NCBI GenBank assembly: GCA_041487575.1
Contig: JBGPNP010000001.1
Coordinates: forward strand, 1 to 46,967
Source: Gaiellaceae bacterium
GTDB taxonomy: Bacteria; Actinomycetota; Thermoleophilia; Gaiellales; Gaiellaceae
Direction of reading: 5' to 3'
Length of the DNA: 46,967 nt
This document shows, in pieces, positions 9,567 through 32,012 of the stretch. Under the pieces are notes generated by a model that did not search any database, was not told the DNA's origin, and saw only the letters and a program-made list of their open reading frames with translations. The stretch's first letter is position 1, and each line of letters opens with the position of its first letter. The translations under genes and the position numbers were made by a program.

Positions 9567-10448
9567 GTGAGACTCTCGCGGGGGGCGCCGTGGCTCTATG
9601 CGGCTCCGATGCTGGCGCTGATCGGAGCCGTCTTCGCCTACCCGGTCGTCACGCTCGTCAAGTACAGCCTCGAGAACGTCTCGACGTCGCCCTACGTCCC
9701 CACGACGTACGCCGGGCTCTCGAACTTCCGCTACATCTTCTCGGACTCCCTCTTCCGGACCGCGCTCGGGAACAACATCAAGCTCTTCCTCTGCGTCCCG
9801 ATCCTCGCCGTCCTCGCCGTCCTCGTCTCGGCGATCCTCTTCGACCGGCCGCGCGGCTGGCGGGCGTACCGGACGGTGCTCTTCGTCCCCTACATCCTCT
9901 CGATCCCGGTCGTCGGGGTCGTGTTCGGGACGCTCTTCCAGCTGAACGGCACCGCCAACACGATCCTGCGGCACGCAGGTCTCGGCGCCCTCGCCCAGGA
10001 CTGGCTCGGCTCGACCGCGTGGGCGCTGCCGACGATCATGTTCGTGATCGTCTGGAAGGAGCTCGGCTTCGGCATCATCCTCTGCCTCGCCCGACTGGCG
10101 AGCGTGGACGAGCAGCTCTTCGAGGCGGCGAAGGTGGACGGCGCCGGCTGGTGGCGCCTGCTCCGGCACGTGACCGTCCCGCAGCTCCTGCCCGCGCTCG
10201 CCTTCTACGTCGTCGTCGAGCTGATCACGATGCTCTCGTGGGTCTTCGCCTACGTCTACGTGATGACGCTCGGCGGCCCGCAGAACTCGACCGTCGTCAG
10301 CGAGTACTACATCTACCAGGCGTTCTTCCAGAACAGCGTGGCCGGGGTGGGCGCCGCCGCGGGCGTCACGCTGCTCGGAGTCGTCAGCCTGTTCATCCTT
10401 CTGCGCGTCTGGATGGGACGGAGGGCCGCGCTCGTTGCGTACGACTGA
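9567..10448 (+). CDS. carbohydrate ABC transporter permease
   Basis: EAA loop EAAKVDGAGWWRLLRHVTVPQL. GTG start. Confidence 0.88.
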   Translation: MRLSRGAPWLYAAPMLALIGAVFAYPVVTLVKYSLENVSTSPYVPTTYAGLSNFRYIFSDSLFRTALGNNIKLFLCVPILAVLAVLVSAILFDRPRGWRAYRTVLFVPYILSIPVVGVVFGTLFQLNGTANTILRHAGLGALAQDWLGSTAWALPTIMFVIVWKELGFGIILCLARLASVDEQLFEAAKVDGAGWWRLLRHVTVPQLLPALAFYVVVELITMLSWVFAYVYVMTLGGPQNSTVVSEYYIYQAFFQNSVAGVGAAAGVTLLGVVSLFILLRVWMGRRAALVAYD

Positions 10449-20005: not shown

Positions 20006-20144
20006 AGCGCCATTGAAGCATAACGGAAGTAATTAGTCAATAACAACTGGACGCCATTTCTGCCGGCATGGACTCCGCTTTCGGGGGATGGTGCGCATGT
20101 CCCTTCTCGCCGATTGTCAGACAGGAGCCGCAGAAGGACGCCGC

Positions 20145-21632
20145 ATGCCGCCGCAGACCAAGGAATCCACAGAAACCGAGAAGGGGTTCGGCACAGGCCT
20201 GCGCGCACAACTCGAGCGCCGGCGCGAGCCGGACGCCTCGAAGCGCGCCGCCGAGCCGAAGTTCGAGGACGCGCTCGCCGCTGCCAAGGCGCTCGTCGAG
20301 GCCGTCCCCGAGCCGAGCACGAACTGGAACGGCAACGGGAACGGGGCCGAAGTCGACGTCGAGGCTGTCCGCGCCGAGCTGGCCGCATCCCTCGCCCGAG
20401 AGCACGACCTTCGCTCAGCGCTCGCCGGCCAGGTCGAGACGCGCGAGCGAGAGCTGACCCTCGAGGGGGAGTTCTCCGACCGGGTCGCTGAGCTCGACGC
20501 TCGCGCAGCGCGCCTCGCTACCGTCGAGACGGAGCTCGAGGAACGCGAGCGCCGGCTGGCCGAGCAGCTCGCAGCGCTCAAGGAGCAGCAGAAGTCGCTT
20601 GGGGAGGCGGAGTCGAAGGTCGTGCGTGCCGAGGCGCTCGCGGCCAGGCACGACGAGCAGATCCAGGCCAAGATCCAGGAGCTCAAGAACGCCGACCGCG
20701 AGCGCGCCAAGGCCGCCCAGGAGCTGACCAAGCAGGCAGCGGCGCTCAACGCCCGCGACGCGAAGCTGGCGAGAGCAGAGGCGGCGCTCACGACGAAGAC
20801 GAAGGAGCTCGACGCCCGAGCCCAGGCCCGGGAGCGGGCGCTCGACGAGCGCGACACGCCCCTCCGCGAGCGCGAGCGCGAGCTCTTCAGGCTCGAGCAG
20901 AAGCTCGGCGAGCGGGAACGCGAGCTTGCGCAGCGCGACGCGCGTATGACCGCCCGCGACGAGTCGCTGGACGCGCGCGAGCGCACTCTTGACGAGCGCG
21001 AGGAGCGCCTGCGAGCGGACGCGGACAAGCTCGAGACCGAGCTCGCAGGCAAGGACAAGGGGGGCCGCGAGACGGTCGTCCGCGAGGCAGAGCTCGACGC
21101 GCGCGAGCTGGACCTCGCCGCGCGAGAGGCCGAAGTGCATCGCCGCGAGGCCGCAATCGCCCGAGCCCAGACGGACACGACCCCGGCCCGCGACTTCACC
21201 GAGCTCGAGGCGCGGTTCGCCGTGCGAGAGCGCGAGCTGGCCGGGCGAGAGCGCGAGCTCACCGAGCGGGAACGCCAGCTGGCCGAGCGCGACTCGGAGC
21301 TCGCGAACGTCGAGACGCTCACCGGTTCGCAGAAGGAGCGGCTCGAGCGCCGTGACAAGCGCGCCGCCGCGCTCGAGGAGGAGTTGAGCGAGCGCCTCGC
21401 CGATCTCGACGGGCGCGAGGCGGCGATCGAGGCGCGGGAAGCGGCGAACGAGGCCGACGTCGAGATCAGGCTCGACAAGCTCGAGCGCAAAGAGGCGGCC
21501 CTCGCGAAGCTCGAGGAGCGCCTGAAGCAGAAGGAAGCGGAGCTAGCCCGCTACGTCGCGCAGGTCCAGGGAGCCCTGAACCGGCGCGAGGACGAGTGGT
21601 GGAAGAAAGTCACGGGCGACCCGGTCGCCTAG
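20145..21632 (+). CDS. long coiled-coil protein rich in E/R/A/L
   Basis: ATG preceded by GAAGGA. About 400 aa of near-continuous heptad-like sequence with reiterated RERELxxRE/LDARE units. The track ORF starts earlier, at 20088. Confidence 0.75.
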   Translation: MPPQTKESTETEKGFGTGLRAQLERRREPDASKRAAEPKFEDALAAAKALVEAVPEPSTNWNGNGNGAEVDVEAVRAELAASLAREHDLRSALAGQVETRERELTLEGEFSDRVAELDARAARLATVETELEERERRLAEQLAALKEQQKSLGEAESKVVRAEALAARHDEQIQAKIQELKNADRERAKAAQELTKQAAALNARDAKLARAEAALTTKTKELDARAQARERALDERDTPLRERERELFRLEQKLGERERELAQRDARMTARDESLDARERTLDEREERLRADADKLETELAGKDKGGRETVVREAELDARELDLAAREAEVHRREAAIARAQTDTTPARDFTELEARFAVRERELAGRERELTERERQLAERDSELANVETLTGSQKERLERRDKRAAALEEELSERLADLDGREAAIEAREAANEADVEIRLDKLERKEAALAKLEERLKQKEAELARYVAQVQGALNRREDEWWKKVTGDPVA

Positions 21633-21641
21633 TGCGGGTCG

Positions 21642-21764
21642 ATGGCCGCCGTCTACCGAGGCCCATTCGGTCGCGAGCAGGCGGAGCGGCTGCTGTGGCG
21701 CTCGGGCTTCGGTCCCCGGCCCGGCGAAGCTGAAGCGCTCGCCGCGAAGGGGCTCGACCACGTG
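21642..21764 (+). pseudogene. N-terminal remnant of a DUF1800-family gene
   Basis: FGREQAERLLWRSGFGPRPGEAEALAAKGLD matches the conserved DUF1800 N-terminus. The rest of the ORF is low-complexity and overlaps the convergent membrane-protein gene. Confidence 0.45.
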
Positions 21765-21815
21765 TCCGGCACGGCCGGCGACGGAGCCGTCGCCGGACGC
21801 GGCCGCACCGAGCGA

Positions 21816-23243
21816 TCAAGCGACTCGCGCGTAGAGCACGGCGTGGGCATCGCGCGCGACCTCTCGGAAGCCGGGTGTTGTCGTCAGCCGCCGCTGCGCC
21901 GGGCTCCCCACGGTCACGAGCACCGCTCGGGGGGCGCGATCGAGTGCCCGCTCTCCCGAGAGCACACCTTCTAGCCAGTCGAGGTAGAGGCGCTGATCCG
22001 GCCCCGCGAAAGCGTCGATCGGGTTCGCGATCCAGACCCGGGCGCCGGCCGCGGCGAGCTGCTCGGCGGGGAGTGCGTCGGCGAGGATCGGTGTCCCGGC
22101 CGCGAGCGCCGCCGAGCGGGCCAGCAAGGCCGTGCTTGCGCCAGCCTGCGCCGGCTCGCGCACGAGCCCGAGAACGAGGAGGAGCGCCACGCTCGCCGAT
22201 CCTGCCAGCACGGCAACGCGTGGTAGCCGCATGGATCTGGCGGGAAGCGGTAGCCCACGCGCCGCCGGCCCGGCGGCGAAGAGCGCGAGCCAGACACCGT
22301 TTCGCCCGGCCTGCGCCGTGAGGAGAGCCAGCCCCGCCAGGCCAGCGAGCTCCCACATGGCCGGACGCGCCCTCAGCGCAAGCGCCACGAGGCCGAGGGC
22401 CGAGACGACAAACGCCACGTCGAAGAGCGATCGAACCGAGAGTGGCGCCCAGAGGCCGGCGCCGCGGCGGGCGGCCTCGTTCGAGAGCACCCCGATGTAG
22501 TAGTCGGGTGTCTGCCAGAGGCTCGGCGTCAGGCAGAGCGCGAGCGCCGAGGACCCCAGGACCGTGACCGCCTCGGCCGGCGAGCGACGGGCTCGGCCGA
22601 GCACGAGGTAGGCCCCCGCGAGCAGGAGCCCCAAAAGCGCCCCGCCGTGGAGGTTCGACCAGAGCGCCAGCAGCGGCACGAGCAGCCAGATCCGCCGCGA
22701 CGGCGCCCGCGCCTCCGACCGGAGCAGGACGACGAGCGCCGGGAAGAGCGCGAGCGAAAAGAGCTGGGCCCGCACGACGACGAAGGCCTGCAGGCAGGCA
22801 ATCACGACGATCAGGAGCACAAGGGCCCGCGCAAGTTCCGGGGCGCCCGCGCGGCGCATGTCGAGCGCCAGAAGCCCGAGCGCGCACGCGACCGCGAGCA
22901 CCTGCGCCAGCACGAGCCCGCGGTCGCCGGGTCCGGCCGCGAGGCCGTGGAAGACAACCTCTCCGAGCACGGGGACGTTCTGCCACCCGTCCGAGACCGC
23001 AGTTGCGAATGGCACCCCGTCCGGGATCCGACCTGTGCGAACGATCGCGCCGCCGAGCGCGACGAGCCAGCGCGCGTCCGCTCCCACCGTCGCCATGAGC
23101 GCGCACGCGGCCGTCGCAAACGCGACCGTGAGCCACGTGACGCACGCGCTCGCGAGACGACCTTGCTTGGCATCCTCCCGAGCGAAGCGAAGGGACGAGC
23201 CCCCGCCGGGGACAATGCGGAGCATTTTCCCCGGTTTACTCAC
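21816..23243 (-). CDS. polytopic integral membrane protein (10 or more predicted TM helices) with a soluble C-terminal domain; family not recognised, possibly GT-C-like
   Basis: 475-aa ORF. The GTG start overlaps the TGA of the upstream gene (GTGA). Contains many hydrophobic helices. The first 24 codons coincide with a repeated element. Confidence 0.7.
   Translation of the reverse strand: MSKPGKMLRIVPGGGSSLRFAREDAKQGRLASACVTWLTVAFATAACALMATVGADARWLVALGGAIVRTGRIPDGVPFATAVSDGWQNVPVLGEVVFHGLAAGPGDRGLVLAQVLAVACALGLLALDMRRAGAPELARALVLLIVVIACLQAFVVVRAQLFSLALFPALVVLLRSEARAPSRRIWLLVPLLALWSNLHGGALLGLLLAGAYLVLGRARRSPAEAVTVLGSSALALCLTPSLWQTPDYYIGVLSNEAARRGAGLWAPLSVRSLFDVAFVVSALGLVALALRARPAMWELAGLAGLALLTAQAGRNGVWLALFAAGPAARGLPLPARSMRLPRVAVLAGSASVALLLVLGLVREPAQAGASTALLARSAALAAGTPILADALPAEQLAAAGARVWIANPIDAFAGPDQRLYLDWLEGVLSGERALDRAPRAVLVTVGSPAQRRLTTTPGFREVARDAHAVLYARVA
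23171..23243 (-). repeat. copy 1 of the stop-codon-anchored hairpin plus 26-nt box element
   Basis: GTGAGTAAA, then hairpin CCGGGGAAAATGC-TCC-GCATTGTCCCCGG (one mismatch), then GTCCCTTCGCTTCGCTCGGGAGGATG. That box is identical to 38961..38986. Confidence 0.8.
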
Positions 23244-23626
23244 CGCTCCACGGAGACGAGGCGGTCGATCCCCTCTCGTGAGGCGTAGTCGAAGCCGGGG
23301 CCGCCGTTCACGTAGTCGGCGAGCCCGTCGCGGGCGTTCAGGTAGTCGTCCCCCGGCCCGCCGTAGAGCCTGTCGATCCCCGGCCCACCCTCGATCTTGT
23401 CGTTCCCGGGCCCGCCGCGCACGATGTCGTTCCCGAAGACGCCCGAGATGATGTCGTCGCCGCCGAAGCCGCAGATGACGTCAGGCCCAGGGGTTCCCAG
23501 CAGGGCGTCCGGCCCGGGCGTGCCCTTGATGGTGCACGGCCGCTCGCCCGCCGGCCGCGACTGGGCGGCCGACGGGATCAGAGCGGCCGCGACGAGAACG
23601 ACCGAAGCTCGCAGGACGAGCTTCAC
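23240..23626 (-). CDS. secreted calcium-binding protein with hemolysin-type (RTX-like GGxGxD) repeats
   Basis: Signal peptide MKLVLRASVVLVAAALIPSAAQS. Repeats GGDDIISG, GNDIVRG, GPGNDKIEG, GPGIDRLYG and GPGDDYLNA. The GTG start overlaps the flp3 stop. Confidence 0.8.
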   Translation of the reverse strand: MKLVLRASVVLVAAALIPSAAQSRPAGERPCTIKGTPGPDALLGTPGPDVICGFGGDDIISGVFGNDIVRGGPGNDKIEGGPGIDRLYGGPGDDYLNARDGLADYVNGGPGFDYASREGIDRLVSVER

Positions 23627-23766
23627 AGCGCTCCGACGATCGAGCTGATCATTCCCTGGGCGGACCCAGAAAGCAGCGAGAAGGCCAGGATGATCGCGGG
23701 GGTGATGACCGCGAGGATGACCGCGTACTCCGTCATCGTCTGCCCTTCCTCACGCATGGTCGACAT
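23623..23766 (-). CDS. flp: Flp family type IVb prepilin (third copy, divergent)
   Basis: Hand translation gives MSTMREEGQTMTEYAVILAVITPAIILAFSLLSGSAQGMISSIVGAL. It carries the G/XXXXEY Flp motif and SD GGAGGGGG 6 nt upstream. Below the ORF-track size cutoff. Confidence 0.85.
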   Translation of the reverse strand: MSTMREEGQTMTEYAVILAVITPAIILAFSLLSGSAQGMISSIVGAL

Positions 23767-23780
23767 GACTCACCCCCTCC

Positions 23781-24692
23781 CTAGAAGAACTTGCTGAGGT
23801 TGAGGAACGCCGGCCCGAGGATGACGATGAACATGGCCGGGAAGATGAAGAGAACTGTTGGGAAGAGCATCTTGATCGGCGCCTTCATCGCCTTCTCCTC
23901 AGCCGCCGACTGGCGCCGCAGCCGGGTGTCCGCCGCCTGCACGCGCAGGATCCGCCCGAGCGAGATGCCGAGCTGGTCGGCCTGGATGATCGACCGGGTG
24001 AAGGCAGAGATCTCCGGGACGGCGAGACGCTCGGCCATCTTCTTGAGCGCGTTCTCGCGGCTCTCGCCGATCCGCACCTCGCCGAGCATGACTGCGAACT
24101 CCTCGACTAGGGGCCCGTCCATGTGCTCGGCGAGCTTCGCGATTGCGCCGTCGAACCCCATGCCCGCCTCGACCGAGACCGCGAGGAGGTCGAGCGCGTC
24201 GGGGAGCTCGGCGCGGATGCTGTCCCGGCGGGAGCGAGCGCGCATTGTCACGATCGAGTCGGGGGCGAAGAAGCCCATCAGCGCGAAGACGAGGCCGAAG
24301 AGGACCGATCCGCCCGCACTCTTTCCGGCAACGGCCCCGACGGCTATGCCGACGGGGACACCGGCGCCGGCAAGGAGCACCTTCGTCGCAAGAAATGCCG
24401 TCGGCGAGACCGTGCGTCCGAGGCCGGCGGCGAGGAGCTTGAGGCTCACCGACTCGACCGTCGCCCTCGGCGAGACCCGGAGCACGGTCCTGGCGAGCGA
24501 GATCAAGAACGGCTGGAGTGCGCGCCTGCGGAAGTCCTCCTGCCCTGGCAGGGCGGCGCGCCCCCGGACGCGCCCGTAGTTCGCCGCGCGCCGGAGCGAG
24601 CCGGCCCGTTCGCGCGCGGGGAGAGTGACGACCTCTGCGACCAGGAAGGCAGCGAGGCCGAGGGTGGCGACTCCGAGAAGAAGAATGAGCAT
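23781..24692 (-). CDS. tadC: Flp pilus assembly platform protein TadC (T2SS F-domain family)
   Basis: 303 aa with a GspF/T2SSF-like cytoplasmic domain (LPDALDLLAVSVEAGMGFDGAI) flanked by TM segments. Confidence 0.88.
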   Translation of the reverse strand: MLILLLGVATLGLAAFLVAEVVTLPARERAGSLRRAANYGRVRGRAALPGQEDFRRRALQPFLISLARTVLRVSPRATVESVSLKLLAAGLGRTVSPTAFLATKVLLAGAGVPVGIAVGAVAGKSAGGSVLFGLVFALMGFFAPDSIVTMRARSRRDSIRAELPDALDLLAVSVEAGMGFDGAIAKLAEHMDGPLVEEFAVMLGEVRIGESRENALKKMAERLAVPEISAFTRSIIQADQLGISLGRILRVQAADTRLRRQSAAEEKAMKAPIKMLFPTVLFIFPAMFIVILGPAFLNLSKFF

Positions 24693-24695
24693 GAC

Positions 24696-26564
24696 CTAAC
24701 CCTTGAAGGAGACGATTCGCTTGAGGATGAAGGAGCCGAACGCCATCATCCCCAGGCCCAGGAAGATGAGCTTGTGGCCGGTCGAGCTCTGGTAGAGGGG
24801 CTGCATGTACTCCGAGTTCACGAGCGTCACGAGGAGCGCGATGAAGAACGGCAGCGCGATGAGGACGTAGGCCGAGGCCCGCCCCATCGCCGTCAAGCCC
24901 TTGATCTTCCGCGCGAACTGCTGGCGGTTGCGCACGGTCTCGGCGACCATGTCGAAGAGCCCGGCGAGGCTGCCGCCCACGGTGCGCTGGATGTTCACCG
25001 CGCTGATGACGAACTCGAGGTTGCTCGAGCCGATCCGCTCGGCCATATCCGAAAGGGCCTCCTCCATCCCCCGCCCGAGCTGCGTCTCGGTGAGGACCCG
25101 CTTGAACTCCTTCGCGGCCGGGTCGACGCCCTCGTCCACCACCGTCTGAATCCCCTGCCGGAAGGAGTGGCCGGCCTTGAGGGACGCCGCCATCGTCACG
25201 AGAAGGTCGGGGAGCTGGTTCTCGAAGGCCTTGAGCCGCCGGCGCGCCTTGAAGGAGGCGAAGCCGTACGGGAGCCAGGCCCCGCCGATCATCGCGGCGA
25301 GAATCGCGACGCTCGACACCCCGGCGACCGCCGCGGCGAAGCCGAAGAAGAGGCCGGCGCCGGCGATGATGTAGACGAACTCGACCGTCCGCAGCGGCAG
25401 ATCGGCGCGCGCAAGCCGCTGCTCGAGCCGGAGCCAGAAGCGCTTGCGCCCGAGGGCGCGCTCCGTGGCATGGAAGAGCGCAGCCGCCGCGGCGAGGCGC
25501 TGGCGGTCCGCCCGCCGGCGCGACTGCCGCCGCTTCTCGCCGACGTGCGGCTGGATCCGCGCACGCACCCAGGAGCCCTTCGGCCGGGTGAGCCCGAGCA
25601 GCGCGGCGACGAGCACGATCAGCCCGATCCCGAAAGCGAAGGCCTTCGGCCCCCACGACGTCTGGAAGAGCTGCTTCGGCAGGAGCTTCGACGGCCCAGG
25701 CCGCGAGACCGTGACCGAAGTTCCAGGCATCCGCGCGTCAGTCGTCGCGGACTCGCCGCCGGCCGTCGCCTCGAGATGGAGGAGCTCGCCGGGCCTGGCC
25801 GCGGTGACGTACTCGAGCTGCCAGGTTCGCCGGAGCTCCGCCGCGAGCGAGTTGTAGACCGAGCCGAGCGCCGCGCTCGAGGCGGCGCCGAAATAGCGTC
25901 CGCCGGTCGCCTCGGCGATCTGCCGGAGCGGCTCAGGCGAGAACTGGGGACCCTCGATCGCGATCGGGTAGACGGCGACGCCGGCCTGCCGGGCCGCCGC
26001 GACCGCGTCCTCGAGCGTGGCCTTGCTCGAGACGTCACGGCCGTCGGTGAGAACGATGAGCACCCGGCCTGGAAGCAGCTCGGACGCAAGCGCGTGCGCC
26101 GCGAGGACGACGGCGTCGTAGAGCGCCGTCCCGGGCATGTCGCCGATGGCGAGCGTCCGCAGGGCGGTGTCGGCGTCGATCGTCGACGTCGAGAAGCCGG
26201 TGAGCTGCTCGGCGGCACTCCCGAACGTCACGACGGCGATGCGGTCGGCGGAAGGCTTCGCCTGGAGAAACGCCCGCGCCGCAGATGTCGCGTCCGCGAG
26301 CGCCTTCCCTTGCATCGATCGCGAGCTGTCAACGGCGAGCACGACGCTCGTGAAGCGCGCGAGGTTCTGCGCCGAGAAGCCCGCCACCGGCTGCCCGTTC
26401 TCGGTTAGCTCCGGCGGCGGCGCGGAGATGGTAGGCGCCACGACCAGCGCGTGGACGACCGGGTAGCCGGCCACGTCGACACCCCGGATCTCGACGCCGG
26501 CGCTGGCCGCCGGGACGGCGGCTAGCGCCCAGATAGTGAGCAGGATGCGCAGCATCCTGCTCAC
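24696..26564 (-). CDS. tadB: fusion protein: signal peptide plus extracytoplasmic vWA domain plus TadB-like T2SS F-domain platform protein
   Basis: vWA MIDAS motif VVLAVDSSRSMQG and LTDGRD. C-terminal half has LPDLLVTMAASLKAGHSFRQGI (T2SSF). The GTG start overlaps the tadA stop (GTGA). Confidence 0.85.
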   Translation of the reverse strand: MSRMLRILLTIWALAAVPAASAGVEIRGVDVAGYPVVHALVVAPTISAPPPELTENGQPVAGFSAQNLARFTSVVLAVDSSRSMQGKALADATSAARAFLQAKPSADRIAVVTFGSAAEQLTGFSTSTIDADTALRTLAIGDMPGTALYDAVVLAAHALASELLPGRVLIVLTDGRDVSSKATLEDAVAAARQAGVAVYPIAIEGPQFSPEPLRQIAEATGGRYFGAASSAALGSVYNSLAAELRRTWQLEYVTAARPGELLHLEATAGGESATTDARMPGTSVTVSRPGPSKLLPKQLFQTSWGPKAFAFGIGLIVLVAALLGLTRPKGSWVRARIQPHVGEKRRQSRRRADRQRLAAAAALFHATERALGRKRFWLRLEQRLARADLPLRTVEFVYIIAGAGLFFGFAAAVAGVSSVAILAAMIGGAWLPYGFASFKARRRLKAFENQLPDLLVTMAASLKAGHSFRQGIQTVVDEGVDPAAKEFKRVLTETQLGRGMEEALSDMAERIGSSNLEFVISAVNIQRTVGGSLAGLFDMVAETVRNRQQFARKIKGLTAMGRASAYVLIALPFFIALLVTLVNSEYMQPLYQSSTGHKLIFLGLGMMAFGSFILKRIVSFKG

Positions 26565-28012
26565 TGGAAGCCGCCGTAGGTCGCGGCGGCAAAGACAGGC
26601 CGGAAGGTCGCCTCCTCATGCTCGAAGAAGTTCGGCGCGAGGACGACCCCGTTCGCCGCGATCTTTTCGAGGAAGTGTGGCTTGAGGCCGGAGCAGCCGA
26701 GCGGAGAGAGAAGGCGCATCCCGTGCGTCGCGGCGGCCGTCTCCTCGTCGGGCGGCTTCGCCACGAAGATGTCCTGGAGCGTGATCACGTCGGACTCCAT
26801 GCGGAGCACCTCAGTGACGTGGCTGATCCGGCGGGAACCGTCGACGAGGCGCGTGATCTGGATGAGCAGGTCGAACGCGCTCGCTACCTGCTCGCGGATG
26901 GCGCGGAGCGGCAGGTCGACTCCCGCGGTGAGGACGAGCGTCTCCATGCGGGCGAGCGCGTCGCGCGGCGAGTTCGCATGGATCGTCGTCAGCGAGCCCT
27001 CGTGGCCCGTGTTCATGGCCTGGAGCATGTCCAGCGTCTCCGCGCCGCGGACCTCGCCGACGATGATCCGGTCGGGCCGCATGCGCAGGGCGTTCCGGAC
27101 GAGCTCGCGGATCTTGACTTCGCCCTGGCCCTCGATGTTGGCCGGGCGCGACTCGAGCGTGATCACGTGCTCCTGCTGGAGCTGGAGCTCGGCCGCGTCC
27201 TCGATCGTGACGATGCGCTCGTCGCCGGGGATGTACGCAGAGAGGGCGTTTAGGAGCGTCGTCTTGCCCGTGCCCGTGCCGCCCGCGATGAGCACGTTGA
27301 GCTTCCCGCGCACGCAGGCCGAGAGGAAGTGCGCGGACTTGGCGGTGAGCGACCCGAAGGTGATCAGGTCGTCCATCGTGTACGGGTCGCGCGCGAACTT
27401 CCGGATCGTCAGCGCCGGGCCCCTGAGCGCGAGCGGCGGGATGATCGCGTTGACGCGGCTCCCGTCCGGGAGGCGCGCGTCCACCATCGGCGAGGCTTCG
27501 TCCACGCGCCTGCCGACCTGGGAGACGATCTTGTCGATGATGCGCAGGAGGTGAGCGTTGTCGACGAACGCCGACGACGTCTTCTCGATCTTCCCGGACC
27601 GCTCGATGTAGATCCGGTCGAAGGCGTTGACCATGATCTCTGTGACGGAGTCGTCGCGGAGAAGCGGCTCCAGCGGCCCGTAGCCCAGGATGTCGTCGGT
27701 GATCTCGCGGACGATCTGGCGCCGCTCGTCGCGGGTGAGGGGCGTCCGGTCGAGGGCTAGCTGCTCGGTGACCGCGCGGAGGACACGCTCGGCAAGATCC
27801 TCGGTCGTCTCGGCCGAGAAGAGCTGCGGGCCGATCTTCGCGATGACGGCGTGATGGATGCGCGTCTTGAGCTCGGCGTAAGGGTCGGAGGCGCGCGGCG
27901 CGCGCGCCTCCCGGGTCTGCGGCGCCGAGACCAGCGGCGGCGCCGTCGCCTCGGCCAGCCTGGTGACCGAGCCGCTTCCGTTGGTGGTCTTGAGGCGGTC
28001 GGAGAGACCCAT
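26561..28012 (-). CDS. tadA: Flp pilus assembly ATPase TadA/CpaF
   Basis: Walker A GGTGTGKTT, a VirB11/GspE-type secretion ATPase core, and a CpaF-like N-terminus. Confidence 0.95.
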   Translation of the reverse strand: MGLSDRLKTTNGSGSVTRLAEATAPPLVSAPQTREARAPRASDPYAELKTRIHHAVIAKIGPQLFSAETTEDLAERVLRAVTEQLALDRTPLTRDERRQIVREITDDILGYGPLEPLLRDDSVTEIMVNAFDRIYIERSGKIEKTSSAFVDNAHLLRIIDKIVSQVGRRVDEASPMVDARLPDGSRVNAIIPPLALRGPALTIRKFARDPYTMDDLITFGSLTAKSAHFLSACVRGKLNVLIAGGTGTGKTTLLNALSAYIPGDERIVTIEDAAELQLQQEHVITLESRPANIEGQGEVKIRELVRNALRMRPDRIIVGEVRGAETLDMLQAMNTGHEGSLTTIHANSPRDALARMETLVLTAGVDLPLRAIREQVASAFDLLIQITRLVDGSRRISHVTEVLRMESDVITLQDIFVAKPPDEETAAATHGMRLLSPLGCSGLKPHFLEKIAANGVVLAPNFFEHEEATFRPVFAAATYGGFQ

Positions 28013-28014
28013 GC

Positions 28015-29220
28015 CTAGCTCCGCCCGATCAGGCGCTTGCGCTTCGCCGGTGCGGCGCCGGCGACGGTTTCGACCGGGGCGAGGGCCTTCGCCATCTCCG
28101 CGACCGCGCAGGCGTATTCCGACTTCGGCTCGGCGACGACCGCCGGCGCGCCCCGGTTGACCGAGAGCGGCACGGCTCGATCGCTCGGCACCGCGAAGCG
28201 AATCTTCACGTCGAGCGCGCCCTCGACCTCACTCGGCTTCATCCCCACCTTCGAGTTGGCCCGGTTCAAGACGATCCGGATCCGGTCCATCGGGAAGGAA
28301 AGGAGCTCGAGCGTCTGGAGCGAGAGCCGGACGTTCTTGAGCGTCGGGATGTCGAGCCCGCAGATGACGAGGAGTTCGTCGGTGCGGTCGAGCGTCGCGA
28401 GCATCGGCCCGTGGAAGAAGGGCGACGTGTCCACGACGATCACGTCGAAGGACTCGCGCGCCACCTCGAGGAGCCTCGCCAGCTTCGTCTCCGTGACAAG
28501 CTCCGCGTCCTCGGGCCGGAGCGGCGCCGGGAGGATCTCGAGCCCGGACGAGTGCCGGGTCGTGTAGCCGGCGAGCTTCTCCGAGTCGAGCTCGCCCGGG
28601 GCGACGACGAGGTCGTAGATCGTCTTGTCGGGCTCGATCCCGAGCATGATCGCGGCGTCGCCGAACTGGAGGTCGAGGTCGAGGAGCAGCGTGCGCTTCC
28701 CCTCGTTCTTCGCGAGCGCGGCGGCGAGGTTCGTCGCCAGCACGGTCTTGCCCGTGCCGCCCTTGGGCGAGAAGACCGTGACGATCCGCCCGCGGCGGCT
28801 GTGCCCGGTCTGCGCTTTGCGGCCGGAGTGGCCCGCCTTCCGAACGGCGAAGACGACGTTTTCCGCCAGCTGCGGCAACAGGAGGACGTCGGCGACGTCC
28901 GCCGCGAGCGCCTCCTCGAGGAGGGCCGTGGCCTCGCCCGAGGCGAGGAGGATGATCGGCGCTTGCGTGTGTGCGCGGATGGCCGCGAGCTCGTTCGCAG
29001 GGAGCGACGAGCCCCGCGTGCCGTGGAGGACGACGCCGAGGTGCCCGCCGGTGAGGACGGCGGCGGCTTCGCGCACCTGCTCGGCGGCGCCCACGAGGTC
29101 GACCTCGACGTGCCGCTCGAGCGCGTCGCAGAGGTCGGCGAGCCCTTCGCACGCGCCCGTGACGAAGACACGCACCTGCTCGCGGGTCGTGACGGGGGAC
29201 AGTGTTTCGAGGCTAGCCAT
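28015..29220 (-). CDS. tadZ: TadZ/CpaE: receiver-like domain plus ParA/MinD-type ATPase
   Basis: Internal ATG (MASLETL) of track ORF 28015..29655. Deviant Walker A SPKGGTGKT. 8-nt overlap with cpaB. Confidence 0.9.
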   Translation of the reverse strand: MASLETLSPVTTREQVRVFVTGACEGLADLCDALERHVEVDLVGAAEQVREAAAVLTGGHLGVVLHGTRGSSLPANELAAIRAHTQAPIILLASGEATALLEEALAADVADVLLLPQLAENVVFAVRKAGHSGRKAQTGHSRRGRIVTVFSPKGGTGKTVLATNLAAALAKNEGKRTLLLDLDLQFGDAAIMLGIEPDKTIYDLVVAPGELDSEKLAGYTTRHSSGLEILPAPLRPEDAELVTETKLARLLEVARESFDVIVVDTSPFFHGPMLATLDRTDELLVICGLDIPTLKNVRLSLQTLELLSFPMDRIRIVLNRANSKVGMKPSEVEGALDVKIRFAVPSDRAVPLSVNRGAPAVVAEPKSEYACAVAEMAKALAPVETVAGAAPAKRKRLIGRS

Positions 29221-30019
29221 TGGTGTTCCCTCCGCTGTTCGTGAGAAGGCTCTTCGCGGCGGCGATGACCGCCTGGATCTGCTCCGGCTTGAGGCCGTCG
29301 AGGAGGAGCGTCTGGGCGTCCTCGATGGTCTGCGGGCTGTCTGCGGGATCCGAGGTGGGTCGGAGCTCGAGCGACCACTCGCCGTTCTGCATGAGCCAGA
29401 AGAGCTTCTGCGCCTGGCTGTCGGTGAGGGCGAGGACGACCGCGATGGACGTCCCGGTCGGTCCGCTCGTGATCTTCGCCACGTCGCCTGCGTTGCCCGC
29501 AGGCTTGAGCACGAGGATGTCGCGGAGGATCGTCCGCGAGTAGTGGCTCTGGGCACTCTCGGGAACGTTCCAGCTGCCGACCACGTCCACCTTGTCCCCG
29601 GCCAGGAGGATTCCGGCGAGGAGCTGCTGCTTGTCTCCCGGGACGGCGACTGCACGCTCGTTGCCGGAGATCTGGGCGCGGATGCCCTTCTCCTGCTGGG
29701 TCGCGAAGCGCCGCGTCGTCACCTGCTCGCCCGCGTATACCGGGTCAACCGCGATCAGCCTGGCGATCTGATCCGGGCTCGCGATCGCGCCCGGCGCGAC
29801 GTTGCGCGTCGCGATCTCCTCCGACTTCAACATCCCCTTGCCAACCACGTCGGCGCCGGCGGTCCCGGCCGGGATGTCACGCGCCGCAACCCACACCTTC
29901 ACGGTGCTCTCGCTGTGCTGGACGCTCTTGCGGTAGTTGGAGACGTAGAAGCTGACCAGCAGGGCCGCGATCAGCGCGAGGCCTACCGCGAGTCCGATGT
30001 TACGAATGCGATGAGTCAT
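29213..30019 (-). CDS. cpaB: Flp pilus assembly protein CpaB/RcpC (SAF domain)
   Basis: N-terminal membrane anchor IGLAVGLALIAALLVSFYV. SAF-like VWVAARDIPAGT and an RcpC-like C-terminal region. Confidence 0.88.
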   Translation of the reverse strand: MTHRIRNIGLAVGLALIAALLVSFYVSNYRKSVQHSESTVKVWVAARDIPAGTAGADVVGKGMLKSEEIATRNVAPGAIASPDQIARLIAVDPVYAGEQVTTRRFATQQEKGIRAQISGNERAVAVPGDKQQLLAGILLAGDKVDVVGSWNVPESAQSHYSRTILRDILVLKPAGNAGDVAKITSGPTGTSIAVVLALTDSQAQKLFWLMQNGEWSLELRPTSDPADSPQTIEDAQTLLLDGLKPEQIQAVIAAAKSLLTNSGGNTNG

Positions 30020-30048: not shown

Positions 30049-30957
30049 CTAGTCGACGAGCTCGACGACGTGAGCGCCGTAGTCCTTGTCTGATCCAGAG
30101 TCGCTTATAATCCCGTCCCAGGTGATACTTTCGAAATCTCCATAGAGATAGGCGTTCTGGCTTCCGTTGATGGTGTAGCCGGTAAGACGGAAGCCGACGA
30201 ATCCGACGACGTGATATTCGAGATTCGCTCCGTTGCCGATGACCTCTCGGTAAATGGGGAGAAGAATGACCTGGCCGATGCGCGTGTTCAGCGCGTTCTG
30301 AATCGTCGACGAGTTGAACCTCGCGCCGGGATCAGAGAAGTACCAGTCGATCGGCATGTAGCCCGAGTAGCCGTACTGGATCCAGCTCGCGATCGTCGGC
30401 GGGCTCGTGCCGCCCTGGGAGCCGTCGATGTTGATCACCCTGAAGGCGCCGGGGCCCACCCGCTGCAGCCCGAGATCGGTCGCCTGGTTGAAGCAGGGGC
30501 AGCCGCCGCCGGAGATCAGCGGGTGGCGCTCGTCCACGCCGAAGGGCGCCGCCCAGCGGGCGGCCCCGGCGACGCCGGCCCTGGCCTTGGCAGTCGCGTC
30601 GACGGTGATCGAGTTGATTCCGAAGATGCGGGCGAAGAAGCCTGGAGCAGGACGGCGCGCCGTGACCGCGATGGTGTCGTTCGTCCGCTCAGTCGTCGAG
30701 AACGAGATGTCCGCGCCAAGGACCCCGCCGCCGTTCTTGTCCGAATACGAAAGCGCAAGCGACTGCGCCTGCGACGTGTTGCCGGGAAGCGCCTGGGCGC
30801 CGGCGAGCGCTGCAGAGTCCGCAGCCTGCTGTACCGCGCGATCGGCCCGGTACCAGGAGCCGACGTCGAGGACGGCCGCCGCCATTCCGAGGATGACGGT
30901 CAGGAAGAGGACGACCAGGACCGTCGACTGGCCGCGGTCGTTGCGAAGCCGCGTCAT
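30049..30957 (-). CDS. tadG: TadG-like pseudopilin / pilus assembly protein (TadE/G-like N-terminus)
   Basis: Internal ATG of track ORF 30049..31071. N-terminus RNDRGQSTVLVVLFLTVILGMAAAVLDVG. ATGA overlap with the tadE-like stop. Confidence 0.8.
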   Translation of the reverse strand: MTRLRNDRGQSTVLVVLFLTVILGMAAAVLDVGSWYRADRAVQQAADSAALAGAQALPGNTSQAQSLALSYSDKNGGGVLGADISFSTTERTNDTIAVTARRPAPGFFARIFGINSITVDATAKARAGVAGAARWAAPFGVDERHPLISGGGCPCFNQATDLGLQRVGPGAFRVINIDGSQGGTSPPTIASWIQYGYSGYMPIDWYFSDPGARFNSSTIQNALNTRIGQVILLPIYREVIGNGANLEYHVVGFVGFRLTGYTINGSQNAYLYGDFESITWDGIISDSGSDKDYGAHVVELVD

Positions 30958-31355
30958 TCGACGCGCTCCGTCGTCGAGCTCGTCAGGTTGCCAGAAGAGA
31001 CGACCAGCCCGAGCAGGCTGATCGAATAGGGGTACGAGGCAGTCACGGTGACATCCGAGCCCTGCTGCCACGCCGAGGCGACGGTGACGGAGAGCTGCGA
31101 CTGGTCGATGTTCGCCGCGGAGGAGCGCACCGCGCTCACGGTCGTGCCGGTCGGATCGCTCGCGTGGCGTGAGACCGCGGCCTTACGCGCACCGGCGCGC
31201 ACTGCATCGGTGACCGTCACGTACTGGTTGAAGACGATCCCGAACTGGAGGATGCCGAAGAGCAGGAGCGCCAGGATAGGCAGGACGAGTGCGAACTCGG
31301 TCACGGCCTGCCCTTGCTGATTCCTCAGCGAAAGCTTGTTGGTTGCGGCTCCCAT
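30954..31355 (-). CDS. tadE: TadE-like pseudopilin
   Basis: QQGQAVTEFALVLPILALLLFGILQF TadE-type N-terminus. ATG at 31355 preceded by GAGGAA. An alternative upstream ATG lies at 31421. Confidence 0.85.
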   Translation of the reverse strand: MGAATNKLSLRNQQGQAVTEFALVLPILALLLFGILQFGIVFNQYVTVTDAVRAGARKAAVSRHASDPTGTTVSAVRSSAANIDQSQLSVTVASAWQQGSDVTVTASYPYSISLLGLVVSSGNLTSSTTERVE

Positions 31356-31434: not shown

Positions 31435-31593
31435 CTAGAGCTTCCCGACGACGTTGGTGATCGCGCCGCTGATTCCGCCGGAAAGGGCGGTCAGGGCGAG
31501 CACGACACCGAGCGTGATGACGGCGAGAACGACGCCGTACTCCGCCATCGTCTGGCCTTCCTCGCGCTTGAAGAATGCAAAGAGCTTCGTCAC
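31435..31593 (-). CDS. flp: Flp family type IVb prepilin
   Basis: Hand translation gives (V)TKLFAFFKREEGQTMAEYGVVLAVITLGVVLALTALSGGISGAITNVVGKL. GTG start 8 nt after GGAGG. G/XXXXEY motif present. Confidence 0.9.
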   Translation of the reverse strand: MTKLFAFFKREEGQTMAEYGVVLAVITLGVVLALTALSGGISGAITNVVGKL

Positions 31594-31618
31594 CTTGTTC
31601 ACCTCCTTCTTATGGTTC

Positions 31619-31777
31619 CTAGAGACTCCCGACGACGGTGTTGATCGCGCCGCTGATGCCGCCGGAAAGAGCGGTCAGCGCGACCACGACGCCGAGCGTG
31701 ATGATGGCGAGAACGACGCCGTACTCCGCCATCGTCTGGCCCTCTTCGCGCCTGAAGAGCGTAAAGAGCTTCGTCAC
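31619..31777 (-). CDS. flp: Flp family type IVb prepilin (tandem paralog)
   Basis: C-terminal 52 codons of track ORF 31619..31933: (V)TKLFTLFRREEGQTMAEYGVVLAIITLGVVVALTALSGGISGAINTVVGSL. Same GGAGGTGAACAA-GTG start context as its paralog. Confidence 0.9.
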   Translation of the reverse strand: MTKLFTLFRREEGQTMAEYGVVLAIITLGVVVALTALSGGISGAINTVVGSL

Positions 31778-32012
31778 GTTGTTCACCTCCCCCCATGAAC
31801 TGGAGCACACCGGCCACGCGCCGACGACTGGAAAGCGCTCAGGCTTGAGGGGCGAGCAATATGCACTGCGATCGAGCCAGTTGATTCGGCGAGCGAGTAC
31901 GCGGGTCACGTCGAGTCGATACCTCCAGAACACTCGGCGTGACCGCTCCGCCGTGGTGGCTCAATTGGGCGGATGATGTGCGAGGAGACGTCGGTCGGGA
32001 ATCCCCCAGCGT

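Follow-up and report, generated by a model that had tools for sequence, protein, structure and literature searches.

Archaeal type IV pilins and archaellins are N-glycosylated by AglB, and protein O-mannosylation in Actinobacteria is carried out by PMT/GT87 enzymes. Both act at the outer face of the membrane on proteins that are exported or form filaments, draw on polyprenyl-phosphate donors, and are general enzymes that are not encoded in pilus operons. The tfpW gene lies directly beside the pilin gene pilA. [quoted passage not shown] TfpW is polytopic, with loop 1 and a large C-terminal domain in the periplasm, and its donor is polyprenyl-phosphate-linked (bioRxiv 10.1101/2020.04.19.049825). 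Few adhesive filaments of bacteria are as widespread as Tad/Flp pili, and almost nothing is known about their decoration or about how they cross a Gram-positive envelope. Flp1 of A. actinomycetemcomitans has been reported to be glycosylated (PMC6182317), and no glycan density is visible in the cryo-EM map of Caulobacter Tad pili (PMC10710030). The searchable literature yielded no description of a tad locus with a GT-C gene, and nothing relevant on other glycosyltransferases in actinobacterial tad loci.

The window analyzed here is a stretch of 46,967 nucleotides from a soil actinobacterium of the Gaiellaceae (assembly GCA_041487575.1, contig JBGPNP010000001.1). It contains a tad operon in the order flp1-flp2-tadE-tadG-rcpC-tadZ-tadA-VWA::tadB-tadC, followed by three genes encoding a third Flp prepilin (flp3), a small beta-roll protein, and a polytopic membrane protein (Table 1). 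On balance, we favor the view that these three genes are an accessory module on the tad operon, whose membrane protein is a GT-C enzyme that glycosylates a Tad-related substrate, either a pilin or the beta-roll protein. The fusion of tadB to a signal peptide and VWA domain is also present in the loci L001, L003, L004, and L006. A prepilin peptidase (A24) was not detected in the window by Pfam scans, which included 30 further ORFs, or by tblastn, and the window has no Rfam matches or tRNA genes.

Table 1. Features of the tad operon and of the genes that follow it, in window coordinates.
Feature	Position	Strand	Evidence or remark
flp1, prepilin, 55 aa	31619..31786	-	start is GTG at 31786
flp2, prepilin, 55 aa	31435..31602	-	86% identity to Flp gene of L004
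tadE, pseudopilin	30954..31355	-	
TadG-like pseudopilin, Tad and Tad_C domains	30049..30957	-	own ATG overlaps tadE stop
rcpC/cpaB	29213..30019	-	RcpC 1.2e-15
tadZ/CpaE-type ParA-like ATPase	28015..29220	-	start refined to ATG at 29220
tadA, secretion ATPase	26561..28012	-	T2SSE 1.8e-66
tadB, 622 aa, fused to N-terminal signal peptide and VWA domain	24696..26564	-	
tadC, T2SSF platform protein, immediately upstream of flp3	23781..24692	-	T2SSF 3.5e-18
flp3, 47-aa Flp-type prepilin	23623..23766	-	Flp_Fap E=1.2e-4; Shine-Dalgarno; 5 orthologues
128-aa secreted Ca-binding beta-roll protein	23240..23626	-	HemolysinCabind 63 bits; CyaA RTX 2e-33; AF2 model
475-aa membrane protein, predicted GT-C fold	21816..23243	-	AF2 model and Foldseek; no sequence-family match
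514-aa coiled-coil protein, convergent on the module	20088..21632	+	

An earlier note on this DNA had described three real genes, translationally packed at the end of the tad operon, and their reading frames, coordinates, and minus-strand orientation were confirmed, as were the spacings between them. A gap of 14 nt separates the tadC stop codon (23781-23783) from the flp3 ATG (23766) and contains a strong Shine-Dalgarno sequence, GGGAGGGGG. The TGA of flp3 overlaps the GTG start of the 128-aa gene by 4 nt (..GCTGTGAAG..), and the TGA of that gene in turn overlaps, again by 4 nt, the GTG that opens the 475-codon ORF (..GAGCGGTGAGT..). The earlier note had also considered that transcription might end after tadC. 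No promoter- or terminator-like site was found in a scan of 21400-24900, and a terminator after tadC is not expected, since the gap is too short to hold one; the hairpin past the last stop codon of the module is not significant (z = -1.6). The flp3, beta-roll, and GT-C genes would thus be co-transcribed with the tad operon, and the overlaps suggest that the triad may be obligately co-translated with the pilus machinery.

The flp3 product has a short leader of 8 aa (MSTMREEG), followed by QTMTEY and a hydrophobic helix, which gives the processing motif EEG/QTMTEY and the product MSTMREEG/QTMTEYAVILAVITPAIILAF... Like other Flp prepilins, it carries the G/XXXXEY motif and a hydrophobic stretch of ~20 residues, falls within 45-90 aa, and is encoded in a tad locus. 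Its match to Flp_Fap (PF04964) scores 22.3 bits, under the gathering score of 32.2, and its orthologues in L008 and L090 are likewise "weak" matches; those of L006, L008, and L009 show 57-59% tblastn identity to flp2. The GC3 of flp3 is 0.85, the orthologues (n=5) share 79-91% amino acid identity, and synonymous exceed non-synonymous codon changes in 8 of 10 pairs, by ~2:1 between the more divergent ones. Judged by its codons and their conservation, flp3 is a real gene. Mature Flp3 has a proline at position 15 that is kept in the orthologues and lacking in flp1 and flp2, and Flp3 is a divergent pilin, probably a minor one.

The 128-aa protein consists of an N-terminal Sec-type signal peptide and ~9 RTX nonapeptides of the GGxGxD type, with a conserved cysteine pair (C30/C52) and no anchor motif. 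Its HemolysinCabind match clears the cut-off of 23 bits, and an AlphaFold model places a beta-roll of 10 short strands at residues 30-128 (pLDDT ~98). In Foldseek searches this model superposes on CyaA block V at an rmsd of 1.6-1.7 A, and the R-modules of AlgE are also matched. The predicted structure therefore has the parallel beta-roll of tandem nonapeptides that defines RTX repeat proteins. On the other hand, the protein does not have the make-up of an RTX toxin or type I substrate: its signal is N-terminal, it is only 128 aa long, it has no other domain, and the scans of window genes revealed no type I secretion genes. Small proteins of its class, called "Ca2+-binding RTX toxin-like", are widespread and have no known function. 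A beta-roll ORF near the GT-C gene was found in none of 80 GTDB species-level loci (tblastn and a nonapeptide regular expression), and a beta-roll partner was rejected as a general feature of the membrane-protein family. We regard it as a Sec-exported, Ca2+-folded partner that is specific to the lineage of the window.

For the membrane protein, the public gene call (P0001) gives 469 aa from an ATG at 23225, six codons downstream of the overlapping GTG. The orthologues of L008 and L009 have an ATG at the position of this GTG (an ATGA overlap), and the overlapping start is therefore favored for the 475-aa protein; it is lost in the L006 orthologue. The protein has ~11 transmembrane helices, its N-terminus in and its C-terminus out, and ends in an extracytoplasmic alpha/beta domain (residues 362-475). 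Profile searches of Pfam, NCBIfam, and the PDB (E<=10) returned no match, a Pfam scan of 39 diverse family members gave only faint matches to DUF6044 and PMT_2 (E>=0.01), and hhalign found no similarity between the family and a GT87 alignment built from neighboring genes. By these profile searches, then, the protein falls in no described GT-C family. Homology searches assign it to a large family without a name, which comprises 6419 clusters at 50% identity (E<=1e-3) and has no Pfam or NCBIfam model.

The AlphaFold model of the 475-aa protein (pLDDT 90.9, pTM 0.88) points to a GT-C fold. In a Foldseek search of the PDB the top 15 matches are all GT-C structures, with a probability of 0.99-1.00 (1.00 for 14 of the 15) and a TMq mostly of 0.45-0.57 (range 0.36-0.57); AftD comes first (1.4e-4), followed by ArnT, AglB, STT3, DPY19, AftA/B, and PglB. 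The predicted structure combines a polytopic core, juxtamembrane helices in the first outer loop, and an extracytoplasmic domain, as the fold demands. We consider a GT-C fold very likely for this protein; the assignment rests on one predicted structure, since there is no sequence-level match to any GT-C family. The earlier note had guessed at a GT-C-like enzyme, which holds at the level of the predicted fold. Its account would have been weakened by a housekeeping protein with no relation to surface structures, which a GT-C enzyme is not. An O-antigen-ligase or Wzy-like reading was also considered and rejected, as the fold matches include no structure of that kind.

Alignments of the family (39 sequences, identity down to 34%) reveal seven invariant residues: D56, W59, W195, H199, Y248, W265, and R314. 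W195 and H199 are part of a WSNLHG motif, whose N197 is nearly invariant. D56, in the sequence GADARW, directly follows TM1 and is invariant in both alignments (A1 and A2); the aspartate is kept even in the 29%-identical GT-C paralogues of L091 and L094 (..QDSWL.. and ..PDSWL..). Hydropathy and the positive-inside rule place D56, N197/H199, and R314 on the outer face of the membrane. D56 may match the catalytic aspartate of GT-C enzymes, by its position only and according to the predicted topology. As these invariant polar residues are placed on the outer face, an enzyme is likelier than the anchor that the earlier note had offered as a second option.

Synteny of the three genes with tad loci, on which the earlier note's account depended, was found in relatives: the triad follows tadC in four related metagenomic contigs (L006, L008, L009, and L090). 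The full triad is limited to these close relatives, one narrow clade at 66-84% identity, and the GT-C gene travels more widely. Among 70 actinobacterial species loci of the membrane-protein family, 30 have tadA, tadB, or tadC within 10 kb, a further 8 have flp, tadE, tadG, or rcpC, and 32 have no tad gene within that distance; in a neighbor-joining tree the unlinked loci are mostly one derived clade. The tad-linked members span Thermoleophilia, Nocardioides, and Intrasporangiaceae, and their arrangements vary. Among more distant relatives, for instance, the GT-C gene is divergent from the flp genes in L001 and L003, upstream of them with a DUF192 gene between in L004, separated by 6 nt from tadC and convergent with it in L019, and, in L055 (Humibacillus), preceded by a GT87 gene with which it forms a pair divergent from flp. 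The pairing of beta-roll and GT-C genes also recurs at 29-57% identity: L091 has the order DUF192, beta-roll, GT-C paralogue with 4-nt overlaps, and in L094 such a pair lies beside an flp gene, the GT-C protein being only 29% identical to that of the window. Genes for GT87, another GT-C family, occur within 10 kb of the family gene in ~20 loci, which suggests glycosylation islands.

Other neighbors were also examined. The unannotated 459-, 489-, 468-, and 577-aa proteins encoded in L001 and L004 were tested as GT-C paralogues and rejected; the 577-aa protein is a homologue of the coiled-coil gene product of the window. A homologue of this coiled-coil gene lies directly after tadC in L004 and L077, and the 514-aa protein is thus probably tad-associated too.

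According to the reading that we favor, the tad operon would be extended by a co-transcribed accessory module of flp3, beta-roll protein, and GT-C enzyme. Like other GT-C enzymes, the membrane protein would use a polyprenyl-phosphate-linked sugar donor on the outer side of the cytoplasmic membrane, with Asp56, just after TM1, as a catalytic or metal-binding residue, and would pass the sugar to a Tad-related acceptor outside the cytoplasm. This acceptor is likely to be either an Flp pilin on its way out of the membrane (flp3 and/or flp1/2) or the secreted beta-roll protein encoded alongside. We observe the structure and packing of the genes, their conservation, the predicted folds, and a recurrent linkage to tad loci; we infer co-transcription, the enzymatic activity of the protein, and the identity of its donor and acceptor. 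A functional link of the enzyme to Tad is likely, and a pilin as the acceptor is somewhat less likely than not. The tad-adjacent relatives suggest an undescribed, pilus-linked glycosylation system. In a broader form, Actinomycetota would possess a dedicated Tad-pilus glycosylation in which this unrecognized GT-C family modifies exiting Flp pilins, and the beta-roll protein serves, in some lineages, as an adaptor or specificity subunit or as a glycosylated pilus-associated adhesin; in that form it is doubtful. The data behind the favored reading come from uncultured genomes. Counted against pilus glycosylation were the Caulobacter map, the 32 unlinked loci, envelope genes nearby that fit a role in envelope glycans equally well, and donor synthesis, for which the Pfam scans of window genes detected no polyprenyl-phosphate sugar synthase, DprE1/2, or flippase.

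The enzyme could instead act on a glycan of the cell envelope, a wall polysaccharide or lipoglycan, and not on a pilus protein; its place beside tad genes would then reflect local remodeling for a pilus that has to pass through a thick Gram-positive wall, or simply a regulation that surface structures have in common. Several neighbors fit such a role, namely the genes for GT87, Arabinose_trans, LPG_synthase_TM, and acyltransferase in L002 and L003, and the recurrent peptidoglycan-hydrolase-like genes (M15-like in L091 and L004, SLT in L092, NlpC/P60 in L064). It would also account for a whole clade of homologues without tad linkage and for a Tad pilus free of glycan density in Caulobacter (PMC10710030), and AftD and ArnT, which match best in structure, have glycans or lipids and not proteins as their substrates. 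However, the protein-modifying AglB, STT3, PglB, and DPY19 match about equally well, the gene of the window clade is translationally coupled to genes for a pilin and a secreted protein, and a general envelope enzyme would hardly be expected to stay linked to tad across very different gene orders. We judge this explanation unlikely.

A model built on the earlier note would make flp3 a minor pilin, for the tip or for priming, on which the beta-roll protein is displayed as a Ca2+-dependent adhesin, with the membrane protein as a non-catalytic anchor or assembly platform. A minor pilin would be expected to differ from flp1 and flp2, as flp3 does in its short leader and conserved Pro15; an exported beta-roll protein without an anchor of its own is consistent with presentation on a pilus, and ligand binding by beta-roll modules is known from the AlgE R-modules. 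Yet the GT-C fold and the invariant polar residues on the inferred outer face give the membrane protein the look of an enzyme, most of its tad-linked homologues lack both a beta-roll gene and a flp3-type gene after tadC, and beta-roll homologues at 52-54% identity are also found away from tad genes, all of which makes this model quite improbable. Very little credence can be given to the triad as a lineage-specific insertion that is read through from tadC and has no functional tie to the pilus: its restriction to one narrow clade and the coiled-coil homologues directly after tadC elsewhere, which suggest an insertion or rearrangement in the window, are outweighed by a pilin gene within the triad itself, by tad linkage of the enzyme family across Thermoleophilia, Nocardioides, and Intrasporangiaceae, and by the recurrence of the beta-roll/GT-C pair beside flp and DUF192.

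The family is thus a concrete candidate for the glycosylation of pilins or pilus-associated proteins: an unnamed GT-C family with thousands of members that travels with tad loci across several actinobacterial orders. If a pilin is indeed the acceptor, its member in the window would be the first glycosyltransferase encoded in a pilus operon for Tad/Flp pili; if the enzyme acts on wall glycans instead, it would be an envelope-remodeling step tied to pilus assembly. Cultured carriers of the family include Humibacillus xanthopallidus DSM 21776 (locus L055, with two flp genes beside the GT87 pair) and the Nocardioides spp. Root122 (L064), Soil774, and BE266. The locus of the window also provides a first genomic context for the many small stand-alone "RTX-like" beta-roll proteins of soil Actinomycetota.

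Compared with the canonical tad locus (flp-tadV-rcpCAB-tadZABCDEFG) and with the actinobacterial loci of M. luteus, M. tuberculosis, and Bifidobacterium, the operon of the window is similarly compact and shares flp, tadE, a tadG-like gene, rcpC, tadZ, tadA, tadB, and tadC. The differences are that the window has no secretin, rcpB, tadD, or tadV, that TadB carries a VWA domain, and that a third flp gene, a beta-roll gene, and a GT-C gene come after tadC. The beta-roll protein resembles the RTX modules of CyaA block V, of the C-terminal domains of serralysin and lipase, and of the AlgE R-modules in its GGxGxD nonapeptides and in a predicted beta-roll that superposes on CyaA block V. Unlike these, it stands alone as a protein of 10 kDa, carries an N-terminal Sec signal peptide in a monoderm host, and has no C-terminal type I signal and no toxin or enzyme domain.

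With the solved GT-C enzymes (AftD, ArnT, AglB/STT3/PglB, DPY19, AftA/AftB), the predicted model of the membrane protein shares a core of many transmembrane helices, juxtamembrane helices in the first outer loop, and an extracytoplasmic C-terminal domain; its conserved aspartate after TM1 may correspond to theirs, going by the predicted topology. It has no detectable sequence similarity to them, however, and is smaller, with 475 aa, ~11 transmembrane helices, and a C-terminal domain of ~110 aa. The AglB and PMT/GT87 systems are alike in relying on a GT-C enzyme, and GT87 genes are frequent neighbors of the family, whereas at the sequence level the two are not homologous to it. The TfpW system is based on type IVa pili of a Gram-negative organism with known D-Araf donor genes, in contrast to the Tad/Flp pili of a Gram-positive actinobacterium, in which no donor genes lie near the module and no DprE-like gene was found in the Pfam scans of the window. 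The accessory partner is also a different one, a beta-roll protein in place of TfpX and, as far as could be judged, not homologous to it. What the two systems have in common is their layout, in which a GT-C gene is placed next to a pilin gene together with a small accessory gene, here in the order flp3, beta-roll, GT-C.

The window, of 70% G+C, carries a compact tad operon on its minus strand (table), at the 3' end of which three further genes follow tadC: a third prepilin gene (flp3), a gene for a secreted RTX-repeat (beta-roll) protein and the ORF of a 475-aa membrane protein, hereafter the enzyme. The earlier note had placed these three ORFs together with the gap and overlaps between them, and this observation was confirmed. 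A Shine-Dalgarno sequence, GGGAGGGGG, precedes flp3 inside the 14-nt gap to the tadC stop; the flp3 TGA overlaps the GTG of the beta-roll gene, whose own TGA overlaps the GTG of the enzyme ORF. The public gene call starts the enzyme at an ATG six codons downstream (469 aa). The overlapping start is the better choice, since an ATG stands at this position in the orthologues from two relatives (L008 and L009). A scan of the module region revealed no promoter-like or terminator-like site within the module, and the gene downstream is convergent. We infer that the triad is co-transcribed with the tad operon.

Coordinates of the tad operon, the three-gene module and the convergent gene
Feature	Position	Strand	Remark
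flp1	31619-31786	-	prepilin
flp2	31435-31602	-	prepilin
tadE	30954-31355	-	
TadG-like gene	30049-30957	-	
rcpC	29213-30019	-	
tadZ	28015-29220	-	
tadA	26561-28012	-	
VWA::tadB fusion	24696-26564	-	
tadC	23781-24692	-	
flp3	23623-23766	-	14 nt past tadC stop
beta-roll gene	23240-23626	-	128 codons
enzyme ORF	21816-23243	-	475 codons
514-aa coiled-coil gene	20088-21632	+	convergent on module

The flp3 gene carries the Flp processing motif (MSTMREEG|QTMTEY), has a GC3 of 0.85 and changes mainly synonymously across five orthologues. Its Pfam Flp_Fap score (22.3 bits) lies under the gathering threshold of 32.2, and a short leader together with a conserved Pro15 of the mature protein sets it apart from flp1 and flp2. 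Nine RTX nonapeptides follow a Sec-type signal peptide in the 128-aa protein, which matches Pfam HemolysinCabind (63 bits) and the CyaA RTX region (2e-33). Its AlphaFold model is a beta-roll (pLDDT ~98 over residues 30-128), which superposes with CyaA block V at 1.6-1.7 A. Identity as an RTX toxin was rejected, as the protein has neither a C-terminal type I secretion signal nor an effector domain, nor type I secretion genes nearby.

Searches of Pfam, NCBIfam and PDB sequences with the 475-aa protein gave no match. Hydropathy and the positive-inside rule predict ~11 TM helices, with the N-terminus in and the C-terminal domain outside. A confident structure model (pLDDT 90.9, pTM 0.88) bears out the earlier note's guess of a GT-C-like protein at the level of predicted fold: all 15 of its top 15 PDB structure matches are GT-C glycosyltransferases (probability 0.99-1.00), among them AftD, ArnT, AglB, STT3, DPY19, AftA, AftB and PglB. 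In sequences down to 34% identity, D56 (directly after TM1), W59, W195, H199, Y248, W265 and R314 are invariant and N197 nearly so; by the predicted topology, these residues would lie on the outer face. This pattern of residues and modelled fold fits a putatively active GT-C enzyme, not a passive anchor. Counting against the GT-C reading, no sequence-level relation of the family to known GT-C families was detected.

The enzyme belongs to a large family that has no name. A word-indexed search returned at least 1447 matches, and an exhaustive search gave 6419 clusters at 50% identity (E<=1e-3), 292 of them with E<=1e-30. Members occur in Gaiellales, Solirubrobacterales, Nocardioides, Humibacillus, Terracoccus and Dermatophilaceae, with remote relatives in Chloroflexota, Acidobacteriota and Deltaproteobacteria. 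The gene is split into two calls (94 + 388 aa) in the nearest long relative (L008:2414-3868, 83% identity), through a frameshift, stop or assembly error of that metagenomic contig.

The proposed synteny with tad holds, as the nearest four contigs (L006, L008, L009, L090) have exactly the order tadC-flp3-beta-roll-enzyme. In more distant relatives the enzyme gene is still beside tad loci at differing positions: divergent from flp genes (L001, L003), upstream of them with DUF192 in between (L004), convergent with tadC at 6 nt (L019), behind a GT87 gene and divergent from flp (Humibacillus L055), or ~4 kb from a Flp gene (Nocardioides L064). Among 70 actinobacterial species-representative loci, 30 have tadA, tadB or tadC within 10 kb, a further 8 have flp, tadE, tadG or rcpC, and 32 have no tad gene in that range. 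This frequency is far above chance, because a tad locus with 10-kb flanks makes up ~1% of such a genome, by our rough estimate rather than by computation. Since loci without tad linkage mostly group in one derived clade of a neighbour-joining tree, tad linkage is widespread and, judging from these sequences, probably ancestral. The unlinked clade (L010-L034, e.g., L010:7893-9960; homologues at 52-55% identity) has a conserved context, with MqnA-like (VitK2_biosynth) and thiolase genes upstream and an ABC transporter downstream. As thiolase and M20 peptidase genes also occur close to the tad locus of the window, this context may be the same chromosomal neighbourhood minus the tad operon.

No beta-roll ORF was found near the enzyme gene in any of 80 species loci, and the beta-roll protein is therefore not a general partner of the enzyme. 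Its homologues at 50-57% identity occur in mixed contexts. Two (L091, L094) show the order DUF192 - beta-roll - enzyme paralogue (29% identical; E=8e-28 and 3e-38 against the family HMM), so that the beta-roll and GT-C pairing is a recurring sub-module. In L091 the module genes have 4-nt overlaps and a GT87-like gene comes next, and in L094 a flp gene adjoins the module; DUF192 itself is a common neighbour of tad genes. Two further contexts have no relation to tad. In Solirubrobacterales (L035, L037-L042, L045, L049, L051, L054, L066, L075), a second, L094-type paralogue precedes the enzyme gene (at ~8-9.9 kb, immediately before the match at 10001). GT87-like genes lie within 10 kb in ~20 loci, and together with these paralogues they form small GT-C islands adjoining tad genes.

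Canonical TadB has no VWA domain on the platform protein, whereas the 622-aa TadB here combines a signal peptide, an extracytoplasmic von Willebrand A domain, a TM segment and a T2SSF platform domain, an architecture shared by L001, L003, L004 and L006 (622-628 aa). The 514-aa coiled-coil protein has a conserved N-terminal motif, TEKGFGTGLRAQL; its gene is probably also tad-associated, since a homologue directly follows tadC in L004 and L077. In the window lineage the module lies between tadC and this gene, which is on the opposite strand, and in L001 and L003 A24 and DUF192 genes follow tadC in the triad's place. No secretin or TadD was detected in the whole window (1-46967), and Rfam and tRNA scans over the same range gave no matches. 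The remaining genes are sugar ABC transporters, SDRs, an EmrB-type MFS gene with TetR, PGA_cap, Nramp, beta-oxidation genes, a helicase, DsbD-thioredoxin, PAC2 and CtaA.

On balance, the evidence favours a co-transcribed accessory module whose enzyme is predicted to glycosylate a Tad-related acceptor. The enzyme would take a sugar off a polyprenyl-phosphate donor and, on the outer side of the membrane, pass it to a pilin or the beta-roll protein; wall glycan is a further possible acceptor. Gene packing, conservation, predicted folds and linkage to tad are direct results of the analysis; co-transcription, catalysis, donor and acceptor are inferred. The earlier note's interpretation is thus borne out in part, in its GT-C guess and its synteny; its tip-pilin adhesin and its obligate co-translation are conjectural. 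Counting against this reading, no donor-synthesis genes were found among the window genes scanned, no prepilin peptidase (Peptidase_A24/TadV) was detected in the window, and glycan density is absent from the Tad pilus of Caulobacter (PMC10710030). The repeated presence of envelope genes, peptidoglycan-hydrolase-like ones among them, in the neighbourhood makes envelope remodelling a plausible rival to glycosylation of a pilus protein. Beside beta-roll/GT-C modules are found an M15/LAS-like protein with a C-terminal HYDHIHVGY (L091:3-962, L004:6914-8293), an SLT protein with PG_binding domains (L092:2473-3375) and an NlpC/P60 gene (L064:11888-12877), a recurrence that hints at wall remodelling tied to these loci.

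The proposed glycosylation by the module enzyme has precedents in other pilus systems. The tfpW gene of P. aeruginosa is encoded beside pilA. Its product, the GT-C enzyme TfpW, glycosylates pilin with a small partner, TfpX (bioRxiv 10.1101/2020.04.19.049825), and glycosylation has been reported for Flp1 of A. actinomycetemcomitans (PMC6182317). A literature search of limited coverage found no published GT-C gene in a tad locus. The parts of the module, a Flp pilin, a beta-roll and a GT-C fold, are of known kinds; what is new is that they occur together on a Tad operon, and that the enzyme family has no name and is broadly linked to tad.
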